Of a DNA stretch of 39,098 nucleotides, positions 898 to 18,940 are shown one piece after another. The stretch is taken from assembly GCA_043813365.1 (NCBI GenBank), contig JBDRLB010000042.1, forward strand, positions 1 to 39,098. Reading direction: 5' to 3'. Made by a program: the position numbers and the translations under genes. Source of the stretch: Candidatus Micrarchaeota archaeon (GTDB lineage Archaea > Micrarchaeota > Micrarchaeia > Norongarragalinales > SBBD01). How positions within the stretch are numbered: the stretch's first letter is position 1; every line of letters begins with the position of its first letter. The notes under the pieces were generated by a model, which saw nothing but the letters and a program-made list of their open reading frames with translations, was not told the DNA's origin and ran no database searches.

Positions 898-1338
898 TTA
901 TTCCTTTTTTAGGAACTCGACACCAATATGATCTGTTTGATGAGAACCCGTCACTTGAACTTGCAGCTTGTACCTTTCGGCTATTTTCTTTGCATAAAAG
1001 TTTACGATCGGAAAAATCGGGATGCCATGCCCCAATTGCGTGTCGAATACAAATTCGCTGGTGCGCAAAATCTTTAACTTGGAAGAATTTGCCTTGTCCG
1101 CGCGCTCGATTTTCGGCTTTACCGGCTGGCCGAAATGCTCCAAGAAGCTCCGCGTCATCCGGTTTGGCGCCCGTTCCTCCTCGGAATGCCTTATCTGGTA
1201 AGGCTCATGGCCTACTTCCCTGAGATATTCTTTCGGCACCTCCCCCCAATATAAGCCCGTAACGATCCTGCGGAGCGCCTCCGCTGCAATTTTTGGCTCT
1301 CCGGCCCTCCTTTTACTTAATGGGATCCGTTCGTTCAT
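898..1338 (-). CDS. hypothetical protein (~146 aa)
   Basis: Open frame with ATG at 1338, 13 nt downstream of the adjacent co-oriented ORF; no recognised family. Confidence 0.65.
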   Translation of the reverse strand: MNERIPLSKRRAGEPKIAAEALRRIVTGLYWGEVPKEYLREVGHEPYQIRHSEEERAPNRMTRSFLEHFGQPVKPKIERADKANSSKLKILRTSEFVFDTQLGHGIPIFPIVNFYAKKIAERYKLQVQVTGSHQTDHIGVEFLKKE

Positions 1339-2958: not shown

Positions 2959-5900
2959 TTACGAGCAGGGAACGAGAGAGGATTGCTCTTCCGGAAGATA
3001 ATTGACAGGATAGGATATCAATTTAACATAAATTTTATCCTTGCATTTGTCAACATCCTCTTGTTCCCAGTTATAATATAAGGGAAGTGAAATCTCTTTT
3101 CCCTGCTTCAGAAGGTCTAGCTGATTGCCCCAGATTTTTTCATTGTTCCTCGAATCCGTGGGGTCCGGATCGTTAAGGCAATAAGTCTTTACGCCGAAGG
3201 TTATGGATTCCTTTTTGCCAGCAGCCTCTATTTGCCTATCCGCTTCAGCCAACGGTTTATTGAATTTTAATTTGAATTCCACCCCACTGTCGATCCAAGT
3301 GGAGAAACCAGCAAGCTTGCAGCTCGTGATTGAGAATAGGTTTGTTTTCATATCTTCTGGATCAAACACGCCGAAAGTTAGCGATCCGAAAGGTTTGCCT
3401 TCGTCCCCGTCCCAAAGCACTTGGCCTGCATCATTGACCCCCGCTATCAACAAATACGTTGCCGGGCTTGCAGGGCCGGCAATCTCATGCGCTCCGCCCG
3501 ATATGGAAATTTCGATTTTTTCAGGGTCTAAGACCTTGTCGGTGTCCTTATTTTGCAAATAGATCACCAGGTAATCGCGCGCACCTGCAGCCCTCGTGTA
3601 ATCTGCAGGAACGGAGTACCTGATAGGAATTTTTTCATTCAACGCGAACTCCCGTTGGCCTGCAGCAATGCCTGCCTGCGGATTGATGCAGATGTCCGCA
3701 ACTCTCAATTTCTTGCTGTCATCCAAATTCAAAACGATGCCGATCGTCTTGTCGGATCCTTCAATGAGCTTTTCGCAGGTTTCCCTGGTTACATCCGGTG
3801 CTTGCGGGATGGTTGCAGAAGCATCAGGAGCAACATTCCTGTTCCTGCAGAATTCGGAGTCGTCCGGCCCTCCAAGCGGGTTGGTGTTGCTGCAAACATT
3901 GCATCCGTAGGGGGTAATCCCATTCGGAGCGTCGGGGCAGATGCCCTTTGCGCATGGGTGGAAGCATTCGGAAAGGAAATCGGCGCTAACGTCATATTGG
4001 GAGCAGGTCTGGAAATGCAAATGCAAGCCGATCTCTTCGTTGCAGTCTTTTCCTTTCGAATTGCCCATCACGCCCACGATGCTCCCCTTGCTGAGCTTGT
4101 CGCCGATGCGTACGTTTATTTCGGCGAGATGGCCATATAGCGTATAGAAATCCGGCTCGCCTGCAACCGAATGCCTCATTATGACGGTGTTGCCATAGCA
4201 ATCCTCACGCATCCTTGCGGAAACGACTTCGCCGGCAAATGGGGCGTACACCCTGGCTTTGCCGTCTGCATCCGGCGTGCCCACAATGTCGATGCCTTGA
4301 TGCTGCCTGTTTTGCCTGTCCGCAAGGAAGCATACGGAATCAAGGGGAGTTGAAAGGGAATAGCGATAGTTGTCAATAATTGCATACGCTTCTTCAACGC
4401 CTTTTTTGTTCATGATCAGGCGGATATCGGCCAGTGGGCGGGAAATCTGCTTCTGTTTTAGCCGGGATTTCGGATTATCTGTCACCGAACTCAGTTTCAA
4501 GGTGAGAGTGTCCTTGAGCCCGTTTTTCTCTATGCTGCCTTTTTCCTCCCCTGTGAGAATTGATCCATAGTCAACGGAGGCCTGGATGGCGCCGTTTTCA
4601 AGAGTGCATTTGGCGTTGCCCTGGGCGTTATTCTTGAATGAGTTCGAGAATGATTGGGAGGTAACTTCGCATGCAATGCTTTTTCCCGCATCCGCCATTA
4701 ATTTGCCCATCTCCGGCGAAATGGAAGTGGAAAATGCCAGGCCATCCAAATCATATTCGTATGAGCCCCTGAATGACGCGACCCAGAGCTTTGCGCTCAC
4801 ATCGGATTTCTTCGCCTTGCAGCTGATGGTGCCTGCTGTTTCCGGAACTGTGGCAAGGGAAACCGCATTCTGTGCATCCTTTTCTGCCTTTGCGTATGTG
4901 CCGTCATCCCCGAGGGAATATTTCTCTTTTTCAAAACCGGCTTGGATCATCACCTTGCTCCTGAAATCGCCAAGCAAGCCGGTATCCGCAGCCGCGTTCT
5001 CGAAACCTGAAATTGCGCAAGTGCCTTCCGTGAAAATTGAATTGGTGTCCTTGAATTCTGCCTCAAACGATGGTTTGGCATCGGTGACGATGAATTGCAA
5101 ATTGCTGGAGATAGGCTCGAGAGTATATTCGCTGACTTCGCCCAATTTCAGGATGATTGGGGCGAGCTTATGAACTCCTGCAGGGTAATAGATGTCGAGG
5201 TAGAGGTCGCTTTTATCATTGAGCGCGCCGGAAGCGGATCTTGAGGAGGCAGCTATTCCAGAACCATCTGCAAATCCCTCCACCTTGAAAACGCCGGAGG
5301 ATTCGCTGCACTTGTCCATCTTGAAAGCGGGGGCCAGCTTGCCTATTTTCGATGGCACGTATTGCTGCCCTGCTGAAATTTGCGTATTTTCAGTTACCTG
5401 CTTGAAGAAGGAGGAATCAGTAGCCACTTTGCATTGCGGAAAGCCCAGATTGGATTGTTGGCCGAGGGGCACGTCATATGCAGCATAGCGCGTGAGAGTG
5501 TACGGGTCGAGCTGGATTTCCTGGGATTCCCATTCCTCATTGTTTGAAGTCTGGAAGCGCTGTTGCTGCGTGCGGGGCATTCCGCGGGCCATTATCCTGA
5601 TGGGAACTGTTCTCGTGCGGCCGGAGCGCAAAGTGATTAGCAGGGGCACATCAAAAGAAGCAGCATTGCACCTGTCCCATGAATAGCCGGAATCAATAGT
5701 AGGGTTTGCATAAATCTGCGAGAGGGAATAATCATACATCAAATTGTTCTGCCCGTAGTAAGGCTGGGGATAGGGATAGGGGGATTGGAGGCTATTCATC
5801 TGCGGGTAATTCTGGTAACCCACGTAGCCATTCCGATATTGCGGAACCGGATAGGAACCGAAGCCGGTCTGGTCGATTGATGAATATGAATACTGTTGAT

Positions 5901-8900
5901 AGGGGGATGAGCCATATTGCGAGTACGACTGATAGGGAGAGGCGCCATATTGGGAATATGGGGAATAGGCGGATGAGCCGTATTGGGAATAGCCCGAATA
6001 TTGATTAGAATATCCGCTTCCATAATAACCGCCCTGCTGCTGGAAGTAAAGCATGCAAGCTGGGTTGCTCCCGTATATCCGCTGGAGGAGGCGGTTGTAA
6101 ACATCATTCCCGGTGAAATCAGCAACAACGTGGATGCGCTGCTCTTCCGGGCCGCAGAACTCAGTCGTGATCCCGAACTCCGCATCCTGTATGGAGCAGC
6201 CGATTACCGGCTCTTCAAAAACACCGAGGGAATAGAAATTGTCGAACCTGCGCGTGTAGGGATCAAGGTAGAAAGTGACCGGGTTGGGGAGAACGGGAAG
6301 GTTGTTGTAGCGGATAATTTTTGTGCTCGCATCCAGAGTGGGTGCGTCTGGCGCCGTCACGATGATGGAGAATGTGCGCAATTGCTGGTCGGATGTGCGG
6401 ATCTGCAGCTTTCCGCGCTGGCGGAAAGTTTTGTTGAGGGATTCAGCGGAATAGTCTGCAGAAATATGTACCAGGCTGCCGGTGCAATCCGCAGTTACGA
6501 GGAAATCATCCTTTGCCTGGATGTCGCAGAAGCTGATTTCGCCGATGTTGCCGCCACTATACATCACATCCGCGAAGCCGTTTTCGTCAAGGCGGAGGTT
6601 TATTACGGAAGGAAGGGCAGCGAAATCATTGCTCTCCAGATCGCTAACCCTGCTGGATTTCACATTGACCCTCACGGGAATGCTCGTCCTGATTGTTGAT
6701 CTGGAAGTAATTGCCTGCTCGAAAATTAGCTGGCAGTTTGTTGTTGCGCTAACATCCGGAAGCACGCCAATTTTGATTTCTGAGGAGCCCTTGAAATTCT
6801 GGACGTAGTTGGGGAATGCATAAAGCACGGGGGTTTCCTGGTTGCCGCAGGTTGAAATTATTGAGAGGTCGCTCTTGTCTGTGAAGGAGGAAGTGATTGA
6901 AATGCTCCGTTCTTCGATTGTGCTGCTGGAATCGCCAATGAATTGCAGTGATTGGGGCGAAACGCGCAGCGCATCATCAGTTATTTCCACGTTAAGGTCG
7001 CATCTGTCGATTGTGCGGTATTTCGGATGGAACACTTTCAGCCCGATTTTGCCGGTTGTCGCCGGCGTGAGGGAAAATTGGTAAATGCCATCCAATCCCA
7101 TGCCGCGCTCGTTGGTTCCTGCAAGCTGCAAATCTTCCGCGGAAAGGGGTGCACGGTCGCAATCATAAAGCATCACGATTGCATCGGTGATCGGATTGTC
7201 TGAGGAATCGTAAACGGAAACTCTCGGTCGTTTCTCCTCGCCGACATTGAACTGCGATGGGGAAATTGCCGCCCTCATGATGTTCTCCCCTGAAATGCGG
7301 AGGTTCTGCCTGTAGGAATAGACATGGTTTTCGGATTTGAAAGCTAGGAGCAATTCGGTTGTGCCCGCCTTGATCGCCTTCAGCTTTATTGACCCGGAAG
7401 TCCTGATATTGGAAGGTATTGCAATGTCCGCGCTTTGCTCCCCTGCCTGCTGCGTGACGGATGGCTCATCAGCAAGGCCCGTGCCGGCTGTCGCGGATGC
7501 GAGTTCGAGGTTGGAATTGATCACCGACAGAGAAATGATCGGTTCCTCCGAAAGCACTTCGAAATTAACGGTGAATTCAGTTCCCAGCGGAATGTCGGTG
7601 CTGCTTGCCTTGAGAGTTATTCTCCTGCAGAAGGAGCCGTCGGCATTGCAAATAAGTGGTGAATCAGTTACCTTAATCTGCACTTCCTTGTTTCCGTTCG
7701 CACACATTCTTCTTACGAGGTCGAGGGGCTCTACAGAATCTTCCACCAGGAGATCCTCGGATTCGGGGTAGCTTATCACAACTCCCTTCTTCTCGGAATA
7801 TGCCTTGTAGAAGAACGTGACTGGAGAGGATGCAGTTGCATCATGCGATACTGAGAATTTTATGGCGATCTCCTTCGTCCCTGCAGTGCCTCGGGGGAAA
7901 ACCAAATCAACGGAATTGATGGTGCCGTTGCCATCCGTTGTAGAATAGCACGTGTCTGGGGAGTATCTTGAGGAGGTGAAAAGGGATTGCGCTGCAGAAT
8001 CGATTTCCAATAGTTTCAATATCCCGTTTGTTGGCGAGATGTGTGCATGGAAACCCGCGATTTCCGCTGCTGACGGGAATGTGACTATGAATTTCGCATA
8101 GTATGTTTCGCCGTTCCCTAGCTCCTTCACTTCCTCCCCGGATTTGAAAATGCCGATGAACGCTGCCGAAACAGATGTGGCATCCTTTTCTGAAACAAGG
8201 TTAAGCTGCATCTGCCGGAATTCCTTTGGCGAAAGGATGTAATGGTCGGACGTGGTCTTCAAATATTTCGGGGAAAGCCCTACAAGGTAGAATTCGATGT
8301 TCGAAGGGATGTTGCTTATTGCGCACCTCCACTCCGCAATTTCGCATTCCCCAAGCATGTCGCCCGCATCCGTCTGCGCAGTCACCTTCCCAGCTGTGAG
8401 TTTCGCTTTCGTTATCGCATCCACGAGCACAACATCCATGTTTGCAGGAGCGGAAACAAGGTTGATGAGGAGGTTTTCAACTCCTTCGGAAGAAATTATT
8501 GCACTCCTGCCGACGCTTGCCTCCCTAGAGGCGGTTGCCAGCAATTTATATGAAGAACCCTCGATTTCCCGCGGAATTCTGAAAGTTACCTTCCCGTCGA
8601 AATCGGTGCTGCCCGCAGGCATTCCCAGGAAGTAGCCGTCGGACTTGAAAAGCGCGACCTCCGCAGACTCGGAAGGCTCGCCATCCTCCAGTACGGTGAT
8701 TTCCAGATCGGCAGAATTCTCATCATTCTGCTTCTCGAGCATGATTTTCTGCTGCTGTGTGGAGGCGGAAGCGGTGATTGATGCCGGCAGGTAGCCGGAT
8801 GCATAAGCCGTAATATAATACTCATTGCCCTGCTTCACCAGGATGCTTGCCTTCCCGTCTGCACTGGAAATTAATTTTTTCGGCAGCTGCTTGCCCTCGA

Positions 8901-9999
8901 GCTCGAACAGGTATATTTGTGCTCCGGAAATTGTGCCCGTTTGTGAAGAGATCAGCAGATCGATGTAATCGCCGTCAACCTTTTCGGTCAGTTCAATGGA
9001 TTCCTCCAGCACGTCGCCGGAAGAGGAGAGCTCGAATTGCTCGGTTTCAGCTGAGAGGTATTTTGCGCTCTCCTTGACCTCGATCGCATATCCCTTCCCT
9101 ATCAAAACATCCTCGAACAGCACCCTTCCAACTGCATCGCTGCTTGCTGCCTGGAGCGTCCTGAAGGAAATGGCATCAAGTAGTAAAACGCGAATGGCTT
9201 CGAGCTGTGCGCCGCTTCTTGAGGTGAGCGTCAGCCTTATTTTACCGTATTTGGAGTTTTCGGGTTCCCCCCCTGCCTTGTCCTTCGCATTCGCTTCCTC
9301 ATTTGACTCAAGCTGGGCGAAGTATACTTCCTTTTCGATGTCGGATTTCAGCAAGCTGATCGGCTTTTCCTTGTAATTGCTTTCGGAAATTATTAGAGTG
9401 GCATGCTCGGGCACATCAGAAAATGTGAAAGTTGCAAGGCCCGAATAGTCGGAAACGCGGGTGAGGCTTTTGCCGTCATCGAATTGCAGCCTCACAGCCG
9501 CGCTTGCTATGTAAAGCCCGCCCACATCGGTCACATATACGTTGAAGAGCTTGTCGTTCTTCCCTGCATCAAGTATTTGCGAGAGCTTAATTTCCTTTGT
9601 TGAAAGGGTGATTGATTCGGATACATCGGCATAAATCATATTCGGATCCGAAATCTCAACCCGGAGGTCCGCATTGGCCGGAACCTCCTTAAACGTCACT
9701 ATTCCATCGGCGGAACTTTCCCCGGTGCCAAGTTCGCGATCGCCGTCGTAAAGCACAACGGCCATATTGGGGATGGGGTTTCCATCGGAGGTTTTGATTG
9801 CCAAGGAAAGGGTCTGGGGCCTTGCAGTAAGTTGCGGCAGCAGGAAATATGCAGCAAGAATGATGATGAGAATCAGCAATGCGGGGAAAATCACCCTCGG
9901 GGAAGGCACTCCTTTCTCTTCCATTTGGGCCATGAGATCCTCATAGCCGTCCTTCAGCTTCTCGAGGAACGAGCCCCCTGCTGCGCCTTCGGAGTCCAT
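2959..9999 (-). CDS. giant (2346 aa) N-terminally membrane-anchored surface protein with beta-sandwich repeats, Y/S/Q/G-rich loop and M23 metallopeptidase domain
   Basis: One TM helix (VIFPALLILIIILAAYFLL). Repeated carboxypeptidase-regulatory/Cna-B-like units (G-PI--A-V-L...D--G-V-F). M23 motifs HQGID (H1900, D1904), YGNTV, YTLYGHL, IVGVMGNS and HLH (H1993, H1995). Confidence 0.9.
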   Translation of the reverse strand: MDSEGAAGGSFLEKLKDGYEDLMAQMEEKGVPSPRVIFPALLILIIILAAYFLLPQLTARPQTLSLAIKTSDGNPIPNMAVVLYDGDRELGTGESSADGIVTFKEVPANADLRVEISDPNMIYADVSESITLSTKEIKLSQILDAGKNDKLFNVYVTDVGGLYIASAAVRLQFDDGKSLTRVSDYSGLATFTFSDVPEHATLIISESNYKEKPISLLKSDIEKEVYFAQLESNEEANAKDKAGGEPENSKYGKIRLTLTSRSGAQLEAIRVLLLDAISFRTLQAASSDAVGRVLFEDVLIGKGYAIEVKESAKYLSAETEQFELSSSGDVLEESIELTEKVDGDYIDLLISSQTGTISGAQIYLFELEGKQLPKKLISSADGKASILVKQGNEYYITAYASGYLPASITASASTQQQKIMLEKQNDENSADLEITVLEDGEPSESAEVALFKSDGYFLGMPAGSTDFDGKVTFRIPREIEGSSYKLLATASREASVGRSAIISSEGVENLLINLVSAPANMDVVLVDAITKAKLTAGKVTAQTDAGDMLGECEIAEWRCAISNIPSNIEFYLVGLSPKYLKTTSDHYILSPKEFRQMQLNLVSEKDATSVSAAFIGIFKSGEEVKELGNGETYYAKFIVTFPSAAEIAGFHAHISPTNGILKLLEIDSAAQSLFTSSRYSPDTCYSTTDGNGTINSVDLVFPRGTAGTKEIAIKFSVSHDATASSPVTFFYKAYSEKKGVVISYPESEDLLVEDSVEPLDLVRRMCANGNKEVQIKVTDSPLICNADGSFCRRITLKASSTDIPLGTEFTVNFEVLSEEPIISLSVINSNLELASATAGTGLADEPSVTQQAGEQSADIAIPSNIRTSGSIKLKAIKAGTTELLLAFKSENHVYSYRQNLRISGENIMRAAISPSQFNVGEEKRPRVSVYDSSDNPITDAIVMLYDCDRAPLSAEDLQLAGTNERGMGLDGIYQFSLTPATTGKIGLKVFHPKYRTIDRCDLNVEITDDALRVSPQSLQFIGDSSSTIEERSISITSSFTDKSDLSIISTCGNQETPVLYAFPNYVQNFKGSSEIKIGVLPDVSATTNCQLIFEQAITSRSTIRTSIPVRVNVKSSRVSDLESNDFAALPSVINLRLDENGFADVMYSGGNIGEISFCDIQAKDDFLVTADCTGSLVHISADYSAESLNKTFRQRGKLQIRTSDQQLRTFSIIVTAPDAPTLDASTKIIRYNNLPVLPNPVTFYLDPYTRRFDNFYSLGVFEEPVIGCSIQDAEFGITTEFCGPEEQRIHVVADFTGNDVYNRLLQRIYGSNPACMLYFQQQGGYYGSGYSNQYSGYSQYGSSAYSPYSQYGASPYQSYSQYGSSPYQQYSYSSIDQTGFGSYPVPQYRNGYVGYQNYPQMNSLQSPYPYPQPYYGQNNLMYDYSLSQIYANPTIDSGYSWDRCNAASFDVPLLITLRSGRTRTVPIRIMARGMPRTQQQRFQTSNNEEWESQEIQLDPYTLTRYAAYDVPLGQQSNLGFPQCKVATDSSFFKQVTENTQISAGQQYVPSKIGKLAPAFKMDKCSESSGVFKVEGFADGSGIAASSRSASGALNDKSDLYLDIYYPAGVHKLAPIILKLGEVSEYTLEPISSNLQFIVTDAKPSFEAEFKDTNSIFTEGTCAISGFENAAADTGLLGDFRSKVMIQAGFEKEKYSLGDDGTYAKAEKDAQNAVSLATVPETAGTISCKAKKSDVSAKLWVASFRGSYEYDLDGLAFSTSISPEMGKLMADAGKSIACEVTSQSFSNSFKNNAQGNAKCTLENGAIQASVDYGSILTGEEKGSIEKNGLKDTLTLKLSSVTDNPKSRLKQKQISRPLADIRLIMNKKGVEEAYAIIDNYRYSLSTPLDSVCFLADRQNRQHQGIDIVGTPDADGKARVYAPFAGEVVSARMREDCYGNTVIMRHSVAGEPDFYTLYGHLAEINVRIGDKLSKGSIVGVMGNSKGKDCNEEIGLHLHFQTCSQYDVSADFLSECFHPCAKGICPDAPNGITPYGCNVCSNTNPLGGPDDSEFCRNRNVAPDASATIPQAPDVTRETCEKLIEGSDKTIGIVLNLDDSKKLRVADICINPQAGIAAGQREFALNEKIPIRYSVPADYTRAAGARDYLVIYLQNKDTDKVLDPEKIEISISGGAHEIAGPASPATYLLIAGVNDAGQVLWDGDEGKPFGSLTFGVFDPEDMKTNLFSITSCKLAGFSTWIDSGVEFKLKFNKPLAEADRQIEAAGKKESITFGVKTYCLNDPDPTDSRNNEKIWGNQLDLLKQGKEISLPLYYNWEQEDVDKCKDKIYVKLISYPVNYLPEEQSSLVPCS
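5893..5991 (-). repeat. 3 x 33-bp tandem repeat encoding YSQYG[S/A]S[A/P]Yxx
   Basis: YSQYGSSAYSP / YSQYGASPYQS / YSQYGSSPYQQ inside the low-complexity region of the 2346-aa protein. Confidence 0.85.
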
Positions 10000-10131
10000 G
10001 CTTAGATAGATGCATAAAACCGTTTAAAAACGTGTTTATGGGTAGCTAAATCTGCAACGGAAATAAACTGCCCCGGATATGCTTTTCTGCGACTGTTTAA
10101 ATATTCTCACTTCTAAAAATACTTTCCGTTT

Positions 10132-10272
10132 AGCCCCGTCGTCTAGACTTCCGCCGGTCAAGGATTGGCGGATTGAGGACAATGGTCAAGGATAGAGGCC
10201 TCTGGCCTCCTTTTCCCAAAAGGGAAAGGAAGGAGAAAGCCTTTGACGGCAGTTCGAATCTGCCCGGGGCTA
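10132..10272 (+). tRNA. tRNA-Gln(CTG) with two introns (15/16: 10147-10182; 37/38: 10206-10237)
   Basis: Spliced form: AGCCCCG TC GTCT AGTGGTCAA GGAT A GAGGC CT-CTG-GA GCCTT TGAC GGCAG TTCGAAT CTGCC CGGGGCT A. Both inserts form hairpins with a 4-bp central helix and a 3-nt 3' bulge. TTTAAATA box at 10096-10103; CCA not encoded. Confidence 0.93.
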
Positions 10273-10383
10273 TTTCGATTTTATTTCTTTTCGATTTTCA
10301 AAGGCACCCTTGTTTCTTTTGCGGCGCCTTGCGCTTTTCTTTTAAAAGAAAAGCAAGGCAGGGGGATCTGCCCGGGGCTATTT
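10258..10383 (+). repeat. 18-bp direct repeat of the tRNA-Gln 3' end (10258-10275 and 10366-10383), att-like
   Basis: ATCTGCCCGGGGCTATTT occurs twice, 108 bp apart, and each copy is followed by a similar T-rich tract. Confidence 0.85.
10310..10359. repeat. dispersed palindromic repeat element, copy 1
   Basis: TTGTTTCTTTTGCGGCGCC-TTG-CGCTTTTCTTT-TAAA-AGAAAAGCAAGGC forms a hairpin; both arms recur at 33917-34017. Confidence 0.75.
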
Positions 10384-10446
10384 TTCTATTTTATTGGTGA
10401 GCCTCGAACATCGGTATTTTTATTCGGGGGGCGCCTACTTTTTCTC

Positions 10447-10992
10447 ATGAAACTCGGCTTCCTTGATTCCATATTCAATTACGCAGACGTGTACGAGGAT
10501 GCGGTGAAGGCAATTGATGCGAAAATACCTTCCGTAAATATGGACAGGATGACTGCGCCCCATCTCCTGAAAATCCCCCTGTTTTCCAAAATGCTCTTCA
10601 GAAACGGATGCGATGCAATAGTGGTTTTCCTCACGATGCTCCCGGAAGATTCGGCGGAGCTGGATTTGGTGCATGAAAAAATAATCGATCTGGAAGTTGC
10701 GGAGGGCAAGGGCGTGTTCTTCTGCATAATTTCAGGAGATGAATTCGACAACGAGGGCCAGCTGAAGGAGATGATGGCGCAGCGGCTTGGGCTGATTGCG
10801 GAGGCGATTGCAAAAATAGTTGCATCCCCAAGCTCCCTTTCCGGGGATATCGCCAACACGGACCTTACCAATGCAATGACGATGTTCGGCGCCCCGGCAG
10901 AGCAGGCACAGGAACAAAAGGCCGAACCGGAGCCAACAGAGGGGCTGCAAGAGCTGGATCTTGGGGTCGATAGCTCGAAAAGCCTATTTTAG
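10447..10992 (+). CDS. hypothetical acidic protein (181 aa)
   Basis: ATG 10447 (MKLGFLDSIF...). The upstream extension of the listed ORF overlaps the tRNA and is not credible. Confidence 0.75.
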   Translation: MKLGFLDSIFNYADVYEDAVKAIDAKIPSVNMDRMTAPHLLKIPLFSKMLFRNGCDAIVVFLTMLPEDSAELDLVHEKIIDLEVAEGKGVFFCIISGDEFDNEGQLKEMMAQRLGLIAEAIAKIVASPSSLSGDIANTDLTNAMTMFGAPAEQAQEQKAEPEPTEGLQELDLGVDSSKSLF

Positions 10993-11000
10993 AAAAAGGA

Positions 11001-14000
11001 TCATACCGGTTTGCACGCCGAGCCGGTCTTGTAGGCGAAAACAGCAGGGTATTTTGTAAGGTCGTAAGGCCCATAGCACGCGTTCTTTGATATTCTAAGT
11101 AGTGCCCATGACAACGAGGACGATCTTGCGGACTTAAACAGGGTCCAGACTGTCCCGATATCCAGGGCGTCAGCTTGTGAGTCCGGATATTGGTAGAAAT
11201 TATTCCCGGTGGGGTAGGAATTTTTCACTCCCGCATAGTGCTTGGTGAAGCCGTCAGGCACAATTGGCCATTCCCAGCTCAAGCAATAATCGCGGTAGGT
11301 GGCTGCGGGGAATATTTCATTGGCAATGTAGGCTCCGCGGGAGGCCCTTGCAGTGATGGGGATGAAGAGGTTGCAAGCGACTTGAGGGCCGCAATAATCC
11401 TGCCCGGGACCTACTGCGTTCGGATAGTTCTCGGAGATATAGAGCGGGCTGATCTTCAATGGCCTCTGGGTTCCGGGAATCTCGAAATCCACGCCGTTGG
11501 TCGTTTCCGTCTGCAGGAGATAATTGCCGAGCCGTACTTTGCACTGGGTCGGCAGGCTTGAAATGCCATCAATGGCATTGTCCTCTATGAGGTTGAAATC
11601 CGCGGTGTCAGTCATCTTATTGAAAACGATGTTTGCGCTTAAGGGCATCACTGCAGAAAATTTGAAGGAGGTCGACTCCGGGTCTGTGGCAAAGTACTTG
11701 TAAGGTTCGGAAAGGCTTTCGGTTCCCGAAGGTGCAATCTCAACTGCATAAATTGCGGATTGATTCTGCCATTCGTACGCGAAGCCCGCAAGCTCCTCAG
11801 TTGCCTTTGTCCCGTCGGGCCGGCATTGGCTGCAAAGCTCCGGATCGCAATAATCTCCCGGGTTCGCAGATCTTGGCCCGCATATTTCGACGCACGAGTC
11901 GCCTCCTGCAGGGCAGGCGGTTGTGTTCCCGGAAGCATCGGTATAATTCTCCCGGGGCTCGATTATCGCACAGTAGTCCGCCTTGTCGGATATCCCGCAG
12001 ATGTTGGTCTCATCCGGATCCTCAGGAGTGCAGCGCTGGTCACATATATCAATTCTCGCCTGGTCGGTTGTTTCCGGCTCGCCGTATTCGAGCCCGTATG
12101 TGTCATAGCAGAACAGGCATGCGACATCCAGCTCATTGACTATTCTCGTGACTTTCGCCCAGTCCTTCTCGGATCCCCTGCATACTGCCGGATCAAGAGT
12201 GTCCTGCGTGTTGGGATTTTGTTTAAGGCAGTAGATGGTGTTTGCAAAGCTGCGCTTGAATGCCGTAGCCTTGGCAACCTGCTGCGCTTTTTTCTGGAAG
12301 GCTCCAATTAATTCCTTTGCGTAAAGGCGCTCGTAATCCTTATTGAAATCGGCGCCGCAAATGCTTTCGCATGCCGACCTGATGGCGTTTGAGGCTTGGG
12401 TGCAATCCACTGCCGCCTTTGCCCATAATTCCTGGTCAATTTCATCGCATTTTTCATTGCTTATGCAGTCTTCAAAGTCACGATCCAAGTTCCCAAAGCA
12501 GGCATCGCGTTGGGAATAGCAGTTATAGTCAATGCCGCACCAGTATTGGCTGCACGAGCGTTGATCGCGGTGCAATTGGCCCCCGCACTCATACCAACAT
12601 ACAGAATACTCGCCAGCGCTTTCTTTCTTTTGGATGCACGCATTGTAATTTAGGTCGAATTCAAAGTCGCATTTTTCATTGCACTCGGCCATATCGGCCC
12701 TTATTGACGGAAGGTCGACGGATTGCTCCGCTTCGGAGATGAGCATCTGCGTCAGCGATTTGGAAGATGGCTCATTGGAGGAGATGACTGCAAATGGCAC
12801 GGGGTTGTAGTCGAAGGAGGCCTTGTCCGGGTAGAAGGCAACGCTAGGTGCATTCGTGCTGTTCCACGTGAGCATATCGGCTGTTTTTCCGCTGCTGCCG
12901 AAGATGCTCGCATAGCCGTTGTCCCTTGCATAAACGCCATTCCTTTGCGAATAGGTGCCGACAGTGATTTTCGGCTGGGAAAGCTGTTCATCCATGCCCG
13001 GCATGAAGCGGTTGTTCAGTGCGTAAACAAGCTTCAGGCTGGGGCTTTCCGTGTCCTGCCCGTAATATGATTTGGGCTTGACGAGGGGATCCTTGTAGGG
13101 GGTGACGGCGAAATCATAGGCGGTTATTCCGCTGGAGACGAGGGTGAAGTTCGCTACGGTTATGTTGATTATTTTCTTCGGGGAAGTATCCGAGGCGAGG
13201 TAGACGCGCATTGCGATTTTCGCTCCCGGAACGGAATTCCCAATTGGGGAAAGCGGGCATCCATTACGGGTGGGCCAATACCTCAAAGCGGAACCTCCAG
13301 GAGTGTAATCGTAATCGAAGCAGCTGTTGTATTTGTTGAAATCCGTGTCGTCGCCAAATCGGTAGCCGAGGAAGGCCATCCGGGATTCGCCATATAGCCC
13401 GGTGTCGTTCAGGGGTATCGCATCATACGGGAAAATGCTATCCACCTGGAAGATTATGTTCGTGCATGAGGATTCCACAACCGGATCCGGTATCCCCTCG
13501 AAGAGGGTGCGCTTTAGCTCCAGTTTATTGCATGCATACATATTGGGCAGCTCCGAAGGGTAGGTTGGAAGCGTATTGTACCTCACCATCACATATGGCT
13601 GCAATAAGATCGGCTGCATGCTGGAGTTGTGGGTATAATTAAGGGTGAGCAGCAAATTGCCGCTGGGTTCGATCGGAGTGAATGTGAGGATTGGGGAAAG
13701 GTCGGATTGGGAGCTGATAGTTGCGGTTATTACTGCAGAATTGGGATCCAAATTGGTGATGCGGCTGCCGATTTGGAGGGCATAAGGCCTGAGTGACGAA
13801 ATGTCGGAAATGGTTATTGTGAGGGTGCCGGGTGTGAAGCGGTACATGTTGTCCGTAATTGTGAACCTGATTTGCAGCTTCCCTTCGGTGCAGTTTGTGC
13901 AGGGCTTGAGCGAATGCACGATAAAGCCCGAGCCGCTGGTGTTGGTGGTGCAGAAAAGCGTTGATGGAGGGCCAGTATAGCCCCTTTTGCACTGGTATTG

Positions 14001-17000
14001 CGAGAATTCCACCTTCACGCATGCTTCGTTGTTCTTGTCGCATAATCGGTTACCGTAAACGCATTTGTTGTCTGTCAATGAGCATACATTATCTCCGTTG
14101 CATTTAGGGTAGCTGTCACAGCATGCGGACCCCTCGTTCCCGCAAGCACGGCATATTCCAAGGCTGCTCGCCTGCTGCAGTTCGCATACTCCCCCAATAC
14201 ATAATTTCCCGGGCAAAGTCAGGCTGCAAAGCTCTCCCCTCCCGCCGAATTCGCACATCGGCAAATTCGAGATGCAGTCCCTGCAAACTGGGAAACCTTT
14301 GGAGCCAGCGCCTCCCAAATTGCCCGCGTCACAGTACTGGTCGAATTTGCACGAGGGGCAGATTACCTCGGCAGTGCATTGCGAATAGGGAACGCATTGC
14401 CCTCTGGAGGAGGCATCATTGCAGCAAACTGTTGCGCCGGTGCATCTCAATGCCGGGGAGGAGGAGCCGCACACTTCGGCAGTTTTGCATGTCCGGGAGT
14501 TTCCGGAAATTACGCATTGCAAATCCGGAAGGCATGCTGTTGCGGTGTTTGCATCGGAATAATCGCAGCATTCCTGATTAATGCCTCCGCACGGGATGCA
14601 AATGTTGGAAGAAGAGCATGTGAGCCCGGAATCGCATTCGTTCGCCAGCCCCGAGCAGCAGAATGCATTTTCCTTTCCGCAGATGGATCCCCTCGCATCC
14701 TTGCAGATGCCATTTGCGATGTTAGAGGAGGAGTCGCAGTATTTCTCATCCGGAGGGGAGCAGGCGGGGGAGCATTCGCGGATGTCAGCAGGATGGCACG
14801 AAAGTACGCATGCCTTGATGCCCGTTCCGGAATTGAGGCAGCATACGGAATTGTCTGAGCATTGGTAATTCGTCGAGCCGCAGCTCGTGGGGTATGTACA
14901 AAAACCTATTGAGTCCGATTCCGACTTCTGGCACTTCCATCCCTGGTTGCAGGAATCTATTGCACCGCCTTCAATACGGGAGATGCAGCATGCCTCCCCG
15001 AAACTGCCGCATGCGTTCAGAACATATGTTTTATTGTAAGTGGCAGCAGAACACCAGCCGGTTGCATTGCCCCCTGCAAATCCCAACTTATTGTCCACGG
15101 GATCGCGGATGAATTCAGCGTTTGAAACCGAATAGGAACGGTACTTCACAGCCAGCTTGTCGGATGCGATCCTGGTTGTAATGCGGAATTTCAGCACCAG
15201 AACGGAGGAGCCCCTAAAGCCGTATTCCGTTTCAAGCCAGGAGGCCGCATCATATGCGCCCGTAAGGGAATTGTAGTCGGTTCTGCATGTTTCCAGGTTG
15301 CTGAGGCTTCTTGCAGCCCGCAATGCAATTGGTTGGTAGCCCCCATATGAGTAATTCGTGAAATACGCTATTTCCGCACCGCCTGCGCCCTCCAGGGAGA
15401 GGAACATGCCATTCCGTTCGGATGATTGCTTGCTGTAGAGGTTGATCTTGAGCAAATAGCTCTGGTCGGTTGTGAGCTCCGTTACGGCGCCGTCATTCAT
15501 GTCCGTGATTCCGGCAAGGATGATTTCGGAAATGATTTTTGAATCCAGCCTGTAGAGCAATGCGGGTATGCGGGTGGAGTTGTTGGGGTTCGCTTTGACA
15601 TTCCCGGTCGCATTCTGATAGTTTTTCGAGTAGACAACATAGCTGAATTCCTTGTCGGCCCTCGCATCAATGGTGCATGAGCCGGCTGTTGCAGTGCAGC
15701 TCTTGTAAAGCGAATTGTTGCGTTCGTTCTTATAGTAGAGGAATGCATCGAATTGCGAAATAGCGGTCGTGTTGTTCTCGCGGTCATTTGCGGAAAATTC
15801 GATTGTCCCTGTCGGGGCGTAAAGCGTGATGTTGAGCTCAACTGCGGAGCCGGAAAGGGTTTTGGTGGTTTCCCCTGCATTGGGCTGCTTCACCGCAATA
15901 ATCCTGAATTCGCCCTTCGGGAAATTCCTGAAAATCGCTTTCCCTTGCGCATTGGTTTTTTGGTCGTATGGCGGCACCTGGTATTCATCGGGATCGAAAA
16001 ATGCAATTGTTGCATCCCTGATTTTCAAGCCATCCTCATTTGCAACATTGATCGTTAGATTGAGGGAATTGCTTGCATCCGCCTTTATCATCGTAATTGT
16101 TTTCGCAACACCGCCTGCGAATTTCATCGTCCTTCCCGGAAGGTAGCCGTCCTTGAATGCGGTGGCGTAATAGATGCGGTTGTCAAATGCCTCTGAACGC
16201 AATTCCGAGGAGGCTCTTTCAACTTTCAGGAGTGTGAAATTCATTTCGGAGAGCCCCTCCCAGAGCCGGATTTCAGAAACAAGGGCAGAATTCCTCTCAT
16301 CAACAACCTTTATGGTGGCAATGGAGCTGTTGACAGTCGAAGCGGATTTCTTCAGCCGCATTGGAAGCGTTGTTTTGCCTGCGACAAGCGTCTTTTCCTT
16401 CACTGCGGGCTCGTAGCCATCCGCAGTTGCCTTCACCCTCAGCTTTGCGCCTACTTTGAAATCATCGGTATCGTACATTCCATAAGTGGTGCTGGCGGTT
16501 TTAAGCAATTCGCCGCTTGCCGCATCGAAGATGAGGAGATCCGCCTCGAGGGCCGAGCCGTCCGCATCGTCCTTCACGGTGATTTCGAGCTGCGAATTAT
16601 CGGAAGGCTGGGGGGTGGGGGATGCTTCCCTTTTCTTCAATATGACTTTTTTCTGCTTCCCTTTTTCGGGAAGGTAGGTGATTTTCGGGCTTGTCTCGTA
16701 CCCGGAAAGCGAGACCTGGATCGTTACATCCGTGCCCGAAGGCGATTGGAGCGCTGCGATTCCGTTGGAACCGGTGGCTGCGGTGTCCGCAACTTCGCCA
16801 TCCTTTCCATTATAAGAGTAAGCAACTGTCGCGCCCCCGAGCGGTGCATTGGAAAAATCAACTACGGCAACTTCGAAACCCGCTCCGCCGCTCCCGGGAG
16901 TGAGTATTATTTTCAATAAGGGCGCGCTGCCTATTTTGAACGATCGCTCCTCATCCCCAAAGCCCTGCTTGCTCACGACGATTTTTGCATCCTTCCCTTT

Positions 17001-17345
17001 CGGAAGGTTGTTGAACTGCGCGGCGCCGTCCTTTGTTTCGATTGTGCGTGCAAGTGTTCCGGAGGTCAGCGTAACGGAAGCTCCATTGATGTTCTCTCCC
17101 TCGGAAACCACGATCACTTTCAGGGATGTTGAGGGGCTGTTGAGCAGGAGGAATGCCGCACCACTTATCATCAGGAGGAAAAGGAAAATTACTATCGGGA
17201 AGGAAGGTATCCCGCGGTCCTCTATGGGGTTGATGAATGATTCATAGATGGGCAATTTCAGCTGCTTCTCGATGTAATCGCATGCGGAATAGTATCCGTC
17301 CTCGATTTTTTCGTAAAGCTCGTTTAAGGACTCCTGCAGCGTCAT
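11001..17345 (-). CDS. giant (2114 aa) N-terminally membrane-anchored Cys-rich surface protein, paralog of the 2346-aa protein
   Basis: N-terminal IEDGYY...IEDRGIPSFP followed by a TM helix (IVIFLFLLMISGAAFLLL). Carboxypeptidase-regulatory-like repeats (GASV-L...G-A-F...V-K-G[F/Y]). CGxxxxxCC repeats at aa ~779-1102 and further Cys-rich blocks toward the C-terminus. Confidence 0.9.
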   Translation of the reverse strand: MTLQESLNELYEKIEDGYYSACDYIEKQLKLPIYESFINPIEDRGIPSFPIVIFLFLLMISGAAFLLLNSPSTSLKVIVVSEGENINGASVTLTSGTLARTIETKDGAAQFNNLPKGKDAKIVVSKQGFGDEERSFKIGSAPLLKIILTPGSGGAGFEVAVVDFSNAPLGGATVAYSYNGKDGEVADTAATGSNGIAALQSPSGTDVTIQVSLSGYETSPKITYLPEKGKQKKVILKKREASPTPQPSDNSQLEITVKDDADGSALEADLLIFDAASGELLKTASTTYGMYDTDDFKVGAKLRVKATADGYEPAVKEKTLVAGKTTLPMRLKKSASTVNSSIATIKVVDERNSALVSEIRLWEGLSEMNFTLLKVERASSELRSEAFDNRIYYATAFKDGYLPGRTMKFAGGVAKTITMIKADASNSLNLTINVANEDGLKIRDATIAFFDPDEYQVPPYDQKTNAQGKAIFRNFPKGEFRIIAVKQPNAGETTKTLSGSAVELNITLYAPTGTIEFSANDRENNTTAISQFDAFLYYKNERNNSLYKSCTATAGSCTIDARADKEFSYVVYSKNYQNATGNVKANPNNSTRIPALLYRLDSKIISEIILAGITDMNDGAVTELTTDQSYLLKINLYSKQSSERNGMFLSLEGAGGAEIAYFTNYSYGGYQPIALRAARSLSNLETCRTDYNSLTGAYDAASWLETEYGFRGSSVLVLKFRITTRIASDKLAVKYRSYSVSNAEFIRDPVDNKLGFAGGNATGWCSAATYNKTYVLNACGSFGEACCISRIEGGAIDSCNQGWKCQKSESDSIGFCTYPTSCGSTNYQCSDNSVCCLNSGTGIKACVLSCHPADIRECSPACSPPDEKYCDSSSNIANGICKDARGSICGKENAFCCSGLANECDSGLTCSSSNICIPCGGINQECCDYSDANTATACLPDLQCVISGNSRTCKTAEVCGSSSPALRCTGATVCCNDASSRGQCVPYSQCTAEVICPSCKFDQYCDAGNLGGAGSKGFPVCRDCISNLPMCEFGGRGELCSLTLPGKLCIGGVCELQQASSLGICRACGNEGSACCDSYPKCNGDNVCSLTDNKCVYGNRLCDKNNEACVKVEFSQYQCKRGYTGPPSTLFCTTNTSGSGFIVHSLKPCTNCTEGKLQIRFTITDNMYRFTPGTLTITISDISSLRPYALQIGSRITNLDPNSAVITATISSQSDLSPILTFTPIEPSGNLLLTLNYTHNSSMQPILLQPYVMVRYNTLPTYPSELPNMYACNKLELKRTLFEGIPDPVVESSCTNIIFQVDSIFPYDAIPLNDTGLYGESRMAFLGYRFGDDTDFNKYNSCFDYDYTPGGSALRYWPTRNGCPLSPIGNSVPGAKIAMRVYLASDTSPKKIINITVANFTLVSSGITAYDFAVTPYKDPLVKPKSYYGQDTESPSLKLVYALNNRFMPGMDEQLSQPKITVGTYSQRNGVYARDNGYASIFGSSGKTADMLTWNSTNAPSVAFYPDKASFDYNPVPFAVISSNEPSSKSLTQMLISEAEQSVDLPSIRADMAECNEKCDFEFDLNYNACIQKKESAGEYSVCWYECGGQLHRDQRSCSQYWCGIDYNCYSQRDACFGNLDRDFEDCISNEKCDEIDQELWAKAAVDCTQASNAIRSACESICGADFNKDYERLYAKELIGAFQKKAQQVAKATAFKRSFANTIYCLKQNPNTQDTLDPAVCRGSEKDWAKVTRIVNELDVACLFCYDTYGLEYGEPETTDQARIDICDQRCTPEDPDETNICGISDKADYCAIIEPRENYTDASGNTTACPAGGDSCVEICGPRSANPGDYCDPELCSQCRPDGTKATEELAGFAYEWQNQSAIYAVEIAPSGTESLSEPYKYFATDPESTSFKFSAVMPLSANIVFNKMTDTADFNLIEDNAIDGISSLPTQCKVRLGNYLLQTETTNGVDFEIPGTQRPLKISPLYISENYPNAVGPGQDYCGPQVACNLFIPITARASRGAYIANEIFPAATYRDYCLSWEWPIVPDGFTKHYAGVKNSYPTGNNFYQYPDSQADALDIGTVWTLFKSARSSSLSWALLRISKNACYGPYDLTKYPAVFAYKTGSACKPV

Positions 17346-17470: not shown

Positions 17471-18940
17471 ATGAAATCAGCGAACGCATTGCAAAATTTG
17501 GAATCCACCGCAAGCATCCAGATCCCAAAGGACCCGTTGGAGCAGGTCATAGGGCAGGATGAGGCCGTGAGGATAGCGAAGCTTGCCGCAAAGCAGAGGA
17601 GGCATTTATTGCTTGTGGGGCCACCAGGGATCGGCAAATCGCTTATTGCCCAGAGCATCGCATACCATTTGCCCAAACCAACTGAAGAAATTTCAGTACT
17701 GCACAATCCCGAGAACCCCGAACGCCCGATCATCGAAATAAAACCGGAGGGCGACCTGCAGAAGGAGAGGAGCATTGAGAAGGAGCTGCAGGGAAAGGTG
17801 CTGGAGCCGAAGGATGTGCCCTCCTTTGTTGCGGAAAAATTGGGCTTCAGGTGCAGGAAATGCAACCGGCTGAGCAGGGCGGCAGAAGCAGCATGCCCGA
17901 ATTGCGGGACCGAGAAATTCAGGAAGGAATATTCGCCCTTCGGGGACCTAGTGTCGGATTATTTCTCGGTGCAGAGGTCCGACAGGGTGCACACAACTAA
18001 AATCAACGAGAATGGGAGGGAGGAGATCATCGTTTATGAAAGGCAGGGGGAGAAGGTGCGGATGCTCGACCAGAAATCTCTCGAGAAAATCGACCAGATA
18101 AAGCAGCAGAGGCCCCGTAAAATTCTAATTCCATTGAGCCGGAAGAATTTCATTATCGCTACAGGTGCGTCGGAAACCGAGCTGCTGGGGGACATAAGGC
18201 ATGACCCGTATGGGGGAAGGCTGACGCCGAGCGGGCCGGGCGCATTCATCGGCTCCCATCCTTACGAGAGAGTCAACCCCGGAACCATTCATGAGGCGCA
18301 CGAAGGGGTTTTGTTTATAGATGAATTGGGCGCACTGAGCTACCTTCAGCGCTACTTATTGACAGCGATGCAGGAAAGGAAGTACTCAATTGTAGGAAGG
18401 AATCCGCAGAGTTCGGGCGCTTCCGTAAGGGTCGATGATGTGCCGTGCGATTTCATCCTGATTGCGGCAAGCAACATAAATGATTTGCAATACGTGGTGC
18501 CTCCGATGCGCTCAAGGATCATTGGGAACGGTTACGAGGTGCTGCTTGATACGCACATGCCAGATAACGAGCATAACCGCGCGAAAATGATGCAATTCAT
18601 TGCGCAGGAGATACGGAAGGATGGCAAGATTCCGCATGCGAACATGGAAGCCGCTATGGAAATCATTGAAGAGTCAAGGAGGCGCGCGAAACTCAATGAC
18701 AATGCCTCGAATGCGCTTACCCTGAGATTCCGGAATTTGAGCGGCATTATCAGGCTGGCGGGTGACATCGCCAAAACGGAAGGGACGGAACTGATCACGA
18801 AGGAATATGTAGTCGAGGCGACAAAGCGCAACCGGAACATCGAGGAGCAGATGAAGGAGAAGTACGGAAGCGTGTGGAAGGCATCCGCGAGCGAGCTCCA
18901 GAATTCGGACTCCTCACGCGAAGCGAAGGAGATAAATTAA
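17471..18940 (+). CDS. LonB-related AAA+ ATPase lacking the protease domain, with a Zn-ribbon insert
   Basis: LonB-like N-terminus IQIPKDPLEQVIGQDEA, Walker A GPPGIGKS, LLGDIRHDPY, Walker B HEAHEGVLFIDE, VPCDFILIAA. CRKC..CPNC insert. The protein ends after the helical domain with no Ser-Lys protease domain. Confidence 0.88.
   Translation: MKSANALQNLESTASIQIPKDPLEQVIGQDEAVRIAKLAAKQRRHLLLVGPPGIGKSLIAQSIAYHLPKPTEEISVLHNPENPERPIIEIKPEGDLQKERSIEKELQGKVLEPKDVPSFVAEKLGFRCRKCNRLSRAAEAACPNCGTEKFRKEYSPFGDLVSDYFSVQRSDRVHTTKINENGREEIIVYERQGEKVRMLDQKSLEKIDQIKQQRPRKILIPLSRKNFIIATGASETELLGDIRHDPYGGRLTPSGPGAFIGSHPYERVNPGTIHEAHEGVLFIDELGALSYLQRYLLTAMQERKYSIVGRNPQSSGASVRVDDVPCDFILIAASNINDLQYVVPPMRSRIIGNGYEVLLDTHMPDNEHNRAKMMQFIAQEIRKDGKIPHANMEAAMEIIEESRRRAKLNDNASNALTLRFRNLSGIIRLAGDIAKTEGTELITKEYVVEATKRNRNIEEQMKEKYGSVWKASASELQNSDSSREAKEIN

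Follow-up and report, generated by a model that had tools for sequence, protein, structure and literature searches.

The DNA analysed here, called the window, is a whole contig of 39,098 nucleotides (JBDRLB010000042.1) from a Candidatus Micrarchaeota archaeon, whose assembly (GCA_043813365.1, referred to as G000, the window being its contig C42) comprises 1.34 Mb in 78 contigs and is 88.6% complete. Within it lie two giant genes, labelled P1 and P2, which an original prediction had described as paralogues sharing a chassis and carrying exchangeable payload modules. The observation of two related giant proteins is confirmed, and both reading frames are intact and together take up 13,386 nucleotides, in agreement with the ~13.4 kb that had been claimed for the pair. 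More broadly, P1 and P2 belong to an order-wide multigene family of giant surface proteins that is undescribed in print: no published description of the family or of its common base was found, supplementary files, which may list members under generic names, lying outside the search. The features of both proteins, including a shared family domain of ~200 residues termed domain X, are collected in Table 1.

Table 1. Features of the giant proteins P1 and P2, with residues of each protein and positions in the window
Feature	Residues	Positions	Strand	Description
P1 gene		2959..9999	-	2346 residues, intact open reading frame
P1 tail and helix	1-54	9838..9999	-	acidic tail (short form), G-V-P-S motif, single hydrophobic helix at 36-54
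P1 stalk	60-600	8200..9822	-	CarboxypepD_reg / prealbumin-like immunoglobulin-like (Ig-like) domains, from Pfam; fixed length
P1 domain X	600-819	7543..8202	-	predicted CnaA/cohesin-like beta-sandwich plus small Ig-like subdomain
P1 base extension	800-1215	6355..7602	-	extension of the common base, at the same positions in 114 of 145 family sequences
P1 repeat domain	1215-1330			repeat domain; 21 family sequences
P1 low-complexity stretch	1321-1430	5710..6039	-	rich in Tyr, Ser, Gln and Gly
P1-subfamily module	1450-1880	4360..5652	-	10 family sequences
P1 Peptidase_M23	1899-1998	4006..4305	-	PF01551; HQGID at 1900, HLH at 1993
P1 C-terminal end	2060-2346	2962..3822	-	orphan
P2 gene		11001..17345	-	2114 residues, intact open reading frame, 99 cysteines
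P2 tail and helix	1-68	17142..17345	-	tail (long form), P-I-E-D-R-G-I-P-S-F-P motif, single hydrophobic helix at 50-68
P2 stalk	75-600	15546..17123	-	CarboxypepD_reg-like Ig domains, from BLASTP and Pfam
P2 domain X, first subdomain	608-777	15015..15524	-	placed by a profile built without P2 (E 2e-19)
P2 Cys-rich block	779-1097	14055..15011	-	about six C-x6-CC-x6-11-C-x5-C units; 11 family sequences
P2 domain X, probable continuation	1098-1240	13626..14054	-	LCDKNNEACVKVEF plus small Ig-like domain; weak
P2 mobile module	1245-1500	12846..13613	-	in 24 other family sequences, at different positions
P2 second Cys-rich region	1500-1870	11736..12848	-	7 family sequences
P2 distal domain	1870-2114	11004..11738	-	conserved; PYKYF, ACNLFD, CFxWEWPxVP; 12 family sequences including paralogue C3

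The motifs on which the kinship of P1 and P2 had been proposed all stand at the residues given for them: DGY at P1 17-19 and P2 16-18, GVPS at P1 30-33 and GIPS at P2 45-48, the stretch beginning FIGIF at P1 614-637 paired with that beginning LAGIT at P2 610-634, FFYKAY (P1 729-745) with VKYRSY (P2 733-749), Cys766 of P1 and Cys765 of P2, and ICNADGSFCRRITL at P1 783-796 with LCDKNNEACVKVEF at P2 1101-1114. In an alignment of all six paralogues encoded by this genome the paired motifs share the same columns. In either protein a single segment, the N-terminal one, is strongly hydrophobic, in keeping with the one transmembrane helix predicted for each, and carboxypeptidase-regulatory-like repeats are present in both (Pfam PF13620; P1 2e-14, 53.9 bits; P2 8e-20, 71.4 bits; cut-off 32.3). 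BLASTP aligns P1 19-474 with P2 34-473 at 26% identity (E 1e-19), and the significance of the direct comparison is limited to that one region. From residue 475 to ~790 the relationship is supported via intermediates, namely the bridging paralogues C26, which aligns to P2 10-789 and P1 19-1187, and C35, which aligns to P1 11-763 and P2 34-782, together with a domain X profile of 33 sequences, P2 not among them, that matches P2 608-777. P1 and P2 represent old, separate subfamilies with no nucleotide similarity to each other. A blastn search with the two genes across the whole assembly turned up no further copy of any part, and a diversity-generating retroelement or recent gene conversion was rejected on that ground.

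Two elements of the original description hold in part. The ~775-residue chassis is real as a shared base, but it is too short for the family norm, P1 800-1215 being common to 114 of the 145 sequences in the family set (which includes a few duplicates of the G000 proteins and underlies all counts of shared modules given here); it is the P2 subfamily that diverges from the shared base after domain X, where most members keep the equivalent of P1 800-1215. Likewise, the paralogy is real, but a pair is too narrow a description of it, as there are six members in this genome and 2-8 per genome across the order. A third element, the claim that in P2 the next shared motif follows only after a Cys-rich insert of ~320 residues, divides the evidence. 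Insertion of the block before that motif is plausible from profile placements, whose support is weak to moderate: the last part of the domain X profile built without P2 falls at P2 1098-1118 (conditional E 0.17), and positions ~9-128 of a profile of P1 775-1215 fall after the Cys-rich block in 4 of 11 P2-type proteins (independent E-values of 2e-4 in P0032, 0.024 in P0003, 0.026 in P2 and 0.034 in P0024). Plain MAFFT disagrees, aligning instead NACGSFGEACCISRIEG of P2 (777-793, the cysteines at the start of the block) with the P1 motif.

The extent of the family became apparent from a profile of the six bases, which was searched against 1.84 billion cluster representatives and gave 11,647 matches at E<=1e-3 (many via common Ig-like repeats), 2,974 at E<=1e-10 and 837 at E<=1e-30. 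Among the best 150 representatives, the N-terminal motif (median start at residue 9) and domain X (median 614-819) occur together in 129, the motif alone in 4, domain X alone in 6, and neither of them in 11, which match through many repeats. Source labels in the library name Candidatus Micrarchaeota for a few members and Candidatus Norongarragalinales for one; the order of the family is probably Ca. Norongarragalinales, which corresponds to GTDB UBA8480 according to the available part of PMC8561730. Its boundary is sharp. In a phylum sample of 301 genomes (G000, 35 others of the same order and 265 of other families) the whole base is matched by every one of the 35 further genomes from the order and by not one of the 265, and the 75-residue N-terminal motif alone reproduces the same split, with 182 matches and 2-8 per genome. 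Among the matches to this motif that were listed, 123 of 150 stand at the head of frames of at least 1000 residues, and several of the 27 shorter ones lie at contig ends. Within G000 the motif is limited to the six paralogues, which are P1, P2 and, on other contigs, proteins of 3243 (C71), ~2500 (C26), ~1745 (C3) and at least 1164 residues (C35, cut by the contig end), plus a weak match on a 215-residue neighbour of the C71 gene; the six genes make up about 2.9% of the assembly. The neighbour, P0162 (G000:C71:15602-16246, minus strand; L058:315-959), lies directly upstream of the 3243-residue paralogue and looks like a miniature family member, with a basic N-terminal tail, an SRGMPPLP motif, one helix and an apparent single Ig-like domain. 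It has no Pfam match, and similar short frames with the motif are present in other genomes of the order.

The most distinctive part of the family is its N-terminus. Across 135 sequences the tail is ~35-50 residues long and follows the consensus M..l..fY.sLEdkYY.f.D.l..kg.P.y..Fv.PiEekGIPSfP; it ends in E-x-x-G-x-P-(S-F-P), with conservation of 89% for E, 98% for G and 99% for P, has a mean net charge of -3.5, and runs straight into the only hydrophobic helix. The N-terminal 60-75 residues have no Pfam match even at E<=1, and an NCBIfam search with the whole proteins found nothing there. The conservation on which a targeting or assembly signal had been suggested is confirmed, and the region is family-specific; a general targeting signal is unlikely, however, since in the genomes searched it occurs almost only on this family. 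The tail could serve the export of very long chains, their sorting or their clustering. A parallel exists in the extended or special signal regions that giant surface proteins of bacteria carry, such as ESPR (in type V secretion), YSIRK-G/S and KxYKxGKxW, in that they too are extra conserved N-terminal segments placed before the hydrophobic core and specific to very large surface proteins, although there is no sequence relation and the host of P1 and P2 is archaeal. Equally characteristic is the stalk, whose length from the end of the N-terminal motif to domain X has a median of 556 residues (interquartile range 543-569) and lies within 520-599 in 131 of 135 sequences.

Domain X, which follows the stalk, was modelled with AlphaFold2 from 34 sequences as one larger and one smaller beta-sandwich (mean predicted local distance difference test score, pLDDT, 84.7; predicted template modelling score, pTM, 0.79). 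The closest structures to this model are an Ig-like domain of PrgB (Z 12.7, root-mean-square deviation 2.3 over 126 residues), TTHA1873 (12.3) and the pilin BcpA (11.7), followed by CLIPPER 9ifr_A (Z 11.0, deviation 2.5 over 116 residues), AgI/II (~11) and cohesins (~10), and Foldseek agrees, with TM-scores of 0.37-0.64. The model points to a CnaA/cohesin-like beta-sandwich of the kind found in the stalks of bacterial adhesins and pilins. Conserved residues comprise Y, P, G, W, A, R, D and four cysteines, the latter (Cys684, Cys766, Cys784 and Cys791 of P1) near-invariant in the 34 aligned sequences, and no Lys or Asn that might form an isopeptide bond is invariant or near-invariant among them. 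On this model domain X shares its fold with CnaA-like and CLIPPER isopeptide domains but differs from them in having no conserved Lys/Asn/Asp set, with cysteines instead.

Beyond the base, P1 carries the one outer module of the pair that is recognised as an enzyme domain. HxxxD and HxH are the zinc-binding and catalytic motifs of M23 peptidases, and both are present in P1, at 1900 and 1993, in a domain that scores 61.7 bits against a Pfam cut-off of 28.7 (E 8e-17; 67.4 bits in a scan of the genome) and whose HQGID and HLH align with RMHNGIDI and GPHLHF of a solved M23 chain, 9gy1_A. A lytic role for P1, as the original prediction had it, is thus credible from the sequence. This is the only M23 domain in the G000 genome, and the region around it (P1 1880-2060) is common to 6 family sequences. 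In the order at large M23 occurs in 27 of 60 genomes, on giant frames in the taxonomic family of the window only (G000, G119, G173, G276 and G126) and elsewhere on frames of 169-1472 residues; the library representatives P0033, P0057 and P0061 also have M23 on the family base. Tandem arrays of three free-standing M23 genes, with neighbouring frames of 357-445 residues, were observed at G148:C1:119077-120472 and G322:C30:24951-26414. The rest of the outer part of P1 is less telling. The Tyr-rich stretch (140 residues that include 28 Y, 25 S and 17 Q) may act as a linker, whether flexible or sticky; the module at 1450-1880 has no Pfam match and no significant PDB sequence match. The last 286 residues match only themselves and their own fragment in the 145-sequence set and have only chance-level rows in Pfam at E<=1, and a word-index search for homologues at the lengths termed 'longer' and 'near' also found none, which is weak evidence.

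P2 is of a different character. No recognised enzyme was found in it, and an NCBIfam search was empty. Its first Cys-rich block is specific to the P2 subfamily, is duplicated in some relatives, and gave no significant match in a PDB sequence search; a profile of the conserved distal domain likewise had no significant PDB sequence match, its AlphaFold2 model, built from a 10-row alignment, reached a pLDDT of 36.4 and was not used, and the ESM Atlas gave no usable lead for either 1870-2114 or 1245-1500 (best 0.86, against a guide value of 0.9). At E<=1, Pfam returned only chance-level rows for the tails of P1 and P2 and for the alternative tails in G132 and G276. What these modules do show is mobility. 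The paralogue C3 has the base only to ~612, then a module of the 1245-1500 type, PEGA and fn3-like repeats and the distal domain, and in C3, P0107 and P0110 outer modules reappear in a changed sequence along the chain. A modular system, with a common base and outer modules that change across relatives, is therefore an apt description, and the architecture of the homologues is not invariant. Other members differ further at their ends: P0014 and P0016 have Cupredoxin_1 at ~1420-1525 in the outer part, in 9 of 135 family members a further strongly hydrophobic segment lies close to the distal C-terminus, and in two relatives of P2, P0003 and P0038, a Gly/Ala-rich hydrophobic insert of 60-90 residues, which P2 itself does not have, sits inside the conserved distal domain. 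Such an insert might enable the far end of a fibril to enter a membrane.

Comparison of genomes at this locus separates what is kept from what is replaced. The block formed by the ACT-domain gene, P1, a 249-residue gene, P2, a LonB-like gene, purE, purC and purA is kept across three genera, being present in G132 and G142, of the same genus, and in G126 and G018, of other genera. Searches recovered the P1-type module and the P2-type block from all 9 of the remaining genomes in the taxonomic family, but from none of 50 genomes that represent other families of the order. M23, by comparison, is present at the P1 locus or its orthologue in 5 of 8 genomes (G000, G276, G119, G173 and G126) and absent from 3 (G132, G142 and G018), the latter genomes having no M23 at all and their P1 orthologues ending in unrelated tails. 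Given this distribution, the locus and the base remain constant, and it is the outer end of P1 that is replaced or lost. Rates of change follow the same gradient: identity between same-genus orthologues of the giant proteins is ~40% over the full length, dropping from 45-50% within the base to 20-30% over the final 300-500 residues, as against 83.5% for the LonB-like protein, 83% for purC and 71% for purA in the same comparison. Fast divergence of the outer ends fits exposed, fast-evolving proteins.

In light of these observations, the reading that we favour, at a probability of roughly 60%, is that of a membrane-anchored giant family with a constant stalk and swappable outer modules, in which P1 is a tethered wall endopeptidase and proteins of the P2 type bind. 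The N-terminal helix would act as a signal anchor, leaving the tail in the cytoplasm and ~2000 residues outside, and the constant stalk would carry the variable part through and beyond the S-layer, where the outer modules would meet other cells or polymers. P1 would be a putative peptidoglycan endopeptidase on a long tether, with which the archaeon, itself without peptidoglycan, would open or digest the walls of bacteria on contact. P2-type proteins would bind rather than cut, through their disulfide-rich modules.

Several points weigh against this reading. The charges flanking the helix (1.4 K+R on the N side, 0.9 on the C side) are of little help for topology, and the chain may be cleaved after the N-terminal helix. 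No adhesive (ligand-binding) domain was found in P1 or P2 by Pfam, NCBIfam or PDB sequence searches, and the tails of 49 members yielded in Pfam only M23 (5), Cupredoxin_1 (2) and PEGA/fn3/Pur_ac_phosph_N/MopE (2), with no adhesive domain in most; the casting of P2 as an adhesin or recognition partner consequently finds no positive evidence, as outside the stalk P2 matches no entry of Pfam, NCBIfam or the PDB. An M23 domain can also be an activator without activity of its own, or can act on substrates other than walls. Moreover, lysis is not a constant function of the P1 locus, since three of eight orthologues are without M23. A search of public sequencing runs listed no RNA run. Finally, the available part of PMC12892359 argues that the order is possibly host-independent, and that part has no mention of surface proteins, adhesion, peptidoglycan or giant proteins. 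Host independence, if real, would make contact with a host the weaker reading and would leave a bacteriolytic one as strong as before.

Other explanations draw on much of the same evidence. Fixed stalk length, as for a spacer fitted to an envelope, and the presence of several copies in every searched genome of the order would suit a structural family whose members serve the S-layer as stalks or spacers, holding or organising it, the variable ends being decoration; SlaB, the stalk that holds the S-layer in the Sulfolobales, would be the analogue. Yet close relatives differ by swaps of the outer halves, which also evolve rapidly, one member carries an enzyme directed at a polymer absent from the cell, 2-8 divergent paralogues per genome are unlike a lattice anchor, and a separate S-layer-type gene exists, encoding on contig C8 of G000 an 815-residue protein with an S_layer_C match of 9e-19. 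A structural role of this kind is on balance rather unlikely. That P1 or P2 is itself the S-layer protein was rejected, as neither matches S_layer_N (PF05123) or S_layer_C (PF05124) even at E<=1, the architecture varies in relatives, and the 815-residue protein is separate.

Alternatively, the two proteins could act as a pair, the lytic P1 and the recognising P2 co-assembling via the common base or the N-termini into a two-part device, as the original prediction had raised. P1-type and P2-type genes are indeed adjacent and on the same strand in all five other family genomes that have both on one contig (G119, G132, G142, G126 and G018), and both subfamilies occur in all nine other genomes of the taxonomic family. 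However, the adjacency needs no functional link, because it is part of the ACT/LonB-like/purE/C/A block kept in three genera; a conserved gene on the opposite strand lies between P1 and P2, the other four paralogues are on other contigs, and three P1-locus orthologues are without the lytic domain while P2 stays. Evidence for co-assembly was thus not found, and we consider a pair of this kind quite improbable. About as little can be said for a polymorphic effector of the bacterial CdiA/Rhs type, in which the base would serve as the arm for delivery and the C-terminal end would be a toxin, released or injected, that strains exchange. A conserved N-terminal majority, combined at a single locus with C-terminal ends that vary from one genome to another within a genus, is what such a system would look like, the last 286 residues of P1 are orphan, and the hydrophobic segment near the distal end of 9 of 135 members might be read in the same sense. 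Against this, no small gene co-varies after the tip, the same ACT-domain protein following downstream with 47-62% identity in G132, G276, G142, G126 and G018; Pfam scans of family members and tails showed no known toxin domain or pre-toxin junction motif; and G000 has no nucleotide repeats or spare tips for P1 or P2. A toxin-delivery system is accordingly very unlikely, and the membrane-anchored family with swappable outer modules remains the preferred account.

The family belongs among the giant surface proteins of DPANN archaea, a kind already known, and comparison with described systems clarifies what is particular to it. Bacterial fibrillar adhesins, Gram-positive pilins and MSCRAMMs (microbial surface components recognizing adhesive matrix molecules), as presented in the available parts of PMC8286594 and bioRxiv 10.1101/2025.04.25.650565, resemble the predicted layout of P1 and P2 in having a long single-chain Ig-like stalk, one anchored end and a functional distal part. 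The present proteins differ from them, as far as those parts go, in their archaeal host, in an N-terminal membrane helix with a conserved, predicted cytoplasmic tail in place of LPXTG, a type I secretion retention module or an OmpA-like domain, and in a stalk of fixed rather than variable length. Closer to hand are the DPANN giant proteins of fam00969, which the available text of PMC8204110 describes as up to ~3000 residues long and predicted to be extracellular, with an SLT domain in hosts that have no peptidoglycan, and for which binding or degrading bacterial walls is the proposed role. P1 shares with them the giant, predicted extracellular format and a putative peptidoglycan-cutting domain. 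Judged by domain content, it differs from what is described there in having an M23 endopeptidase rather than SLT, in belonging to one order of Micrarchaeia, and in carrying its enzyme as an optional end, on a base that many paralogues without an enzyme have as well; no SLT or murein lytic transglycosylase domain was matched by Pfam in P1 or P2. The SPEARE proteins of Nanohaloarchaeota, in the portion available of PMC6642349, are likewise giant and worth a few percent of the genome; they are membrane-anchored and mostly outside the cell, as is predicted for P1 and P2, and with adhesion-type domains and a hydrolase they are proposed to mediate cell contact. They are, however, mostly anchored near the C-terminus and have a conserved cytoplasmic type III restriction-enzyme part, laminin-G and a serine protease, whereas none of the SPEARE domains is among the Pfam matches of P1 or P2, whose predicted cytoplasmic part is only ~35-50 residues.

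Precedent also exists for the proposed activity. Archaeal peptidoglycan hydrolases that kill bacteria are the subject of PMC12352652, the available part of which reports M23 weapons demonstrated in haloarchaea; P1 resembles these in having an archaeal M23 domain of bacterial type that may be read as a weapon against bacteria. Those enzymes are small (M23 plus PG_binding_1) and come from Halobacteriales and Nanoarchaeia, and that part of the paper mentions no Micrarchaeota and no giant tethered form. In Ca. Norongarragalina itself, an extracellular M23B has been noted and wall breaking proposed (PMC8561730, in the part available), and for a cultured micrarchaeon an S-layer protein of ~101 kDa with S-layer domains is described in the available part of bioRxiv 10.1101/2021.04.28.441871.

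A bolder and doubtful synthesis would join these elements. The tail junction E-x-x-G-x-P-S-F-P would be a lineage-specific insertion signal, the 556-residue stalk a ruler for the S-layer, and the whole a display platform for swappable contact tools, making these archaea, which have small genomes and are argued in print to be possibly free-living, contact predators or scavengers of bacteria rather than symbionts of archaea. Were this so, the tail would do in archaea what special signal regions do for the giant adhesins of bacteria, and the tools would include the wall-cutting M23 and, in some members, a distal membrane-inserting hairpin. For the means by which DPANN archaea contact, recognise and exploit other cells there are few molecular candidates, and the family provides a defined, countable set, with a signature (tail motif, fixed stalk and domain X) sharp enough to be used for profile building. 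Its M23-bearing members have a directly testable activity that bears on whether life in this lineage is host-independent, as the available part of PMC12892359 would have it, or directed against bacteria. Further, outer parts of 1000-1500 residues that are almost wholly without known family may prove a source of new extracellular folds.

The surroundings of P1 and P2 are archaeal in type, with TFIIE-alpha, FttA/aCPSF1, proteasome and purE/purC/purA genes in the window. Between the two giants, at 10243-10992 on the plus strand and thus opposite to both, lies the 249-residue gene of the conserved block, whose similarity to archaeal riboflavin synthase and lumazine synthase is weak (E 4e-7 and 6e-4, both below cut-off); it is kept at the same place in G132, G142, G126 and G018 with 48-65% identity. 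Upstream of P2 and divergent from it, at 17471-18940 on the plus strand, is a 489-residue AAA+ protein that matches archaeal LonB at E 1e-103 yet falls under the family cut-off, its best stretch covering only positions 170-404 of the 608 in the profile; the protein may be an ATPase of the Lon type that has no protease part, and it is syntenic in four relatives at 66-84% identity. Both genes were rejected as parts of the system, being syntenic together with the purine genes. A shared promoter motif was rejected as well: in the 200 nucleotides upstream of the six paralogues no 8-mer occurs in more than two, and only TATA-like A/T boxes were seen. Among public sequencing runs, five DNA runs from groundwater or biofilm (3 studies) contain 0.14-0.35 of the words and were used for neither habitat nor expression. 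G000 also encodes many giant frames with different N-termini, among them proteins of at least 5034 (C52), at least 4191 (C46), 3193 (C19), at least 2833 (C73) and at least 2311 residues (C70), in addition to several pilin-like N-termini.

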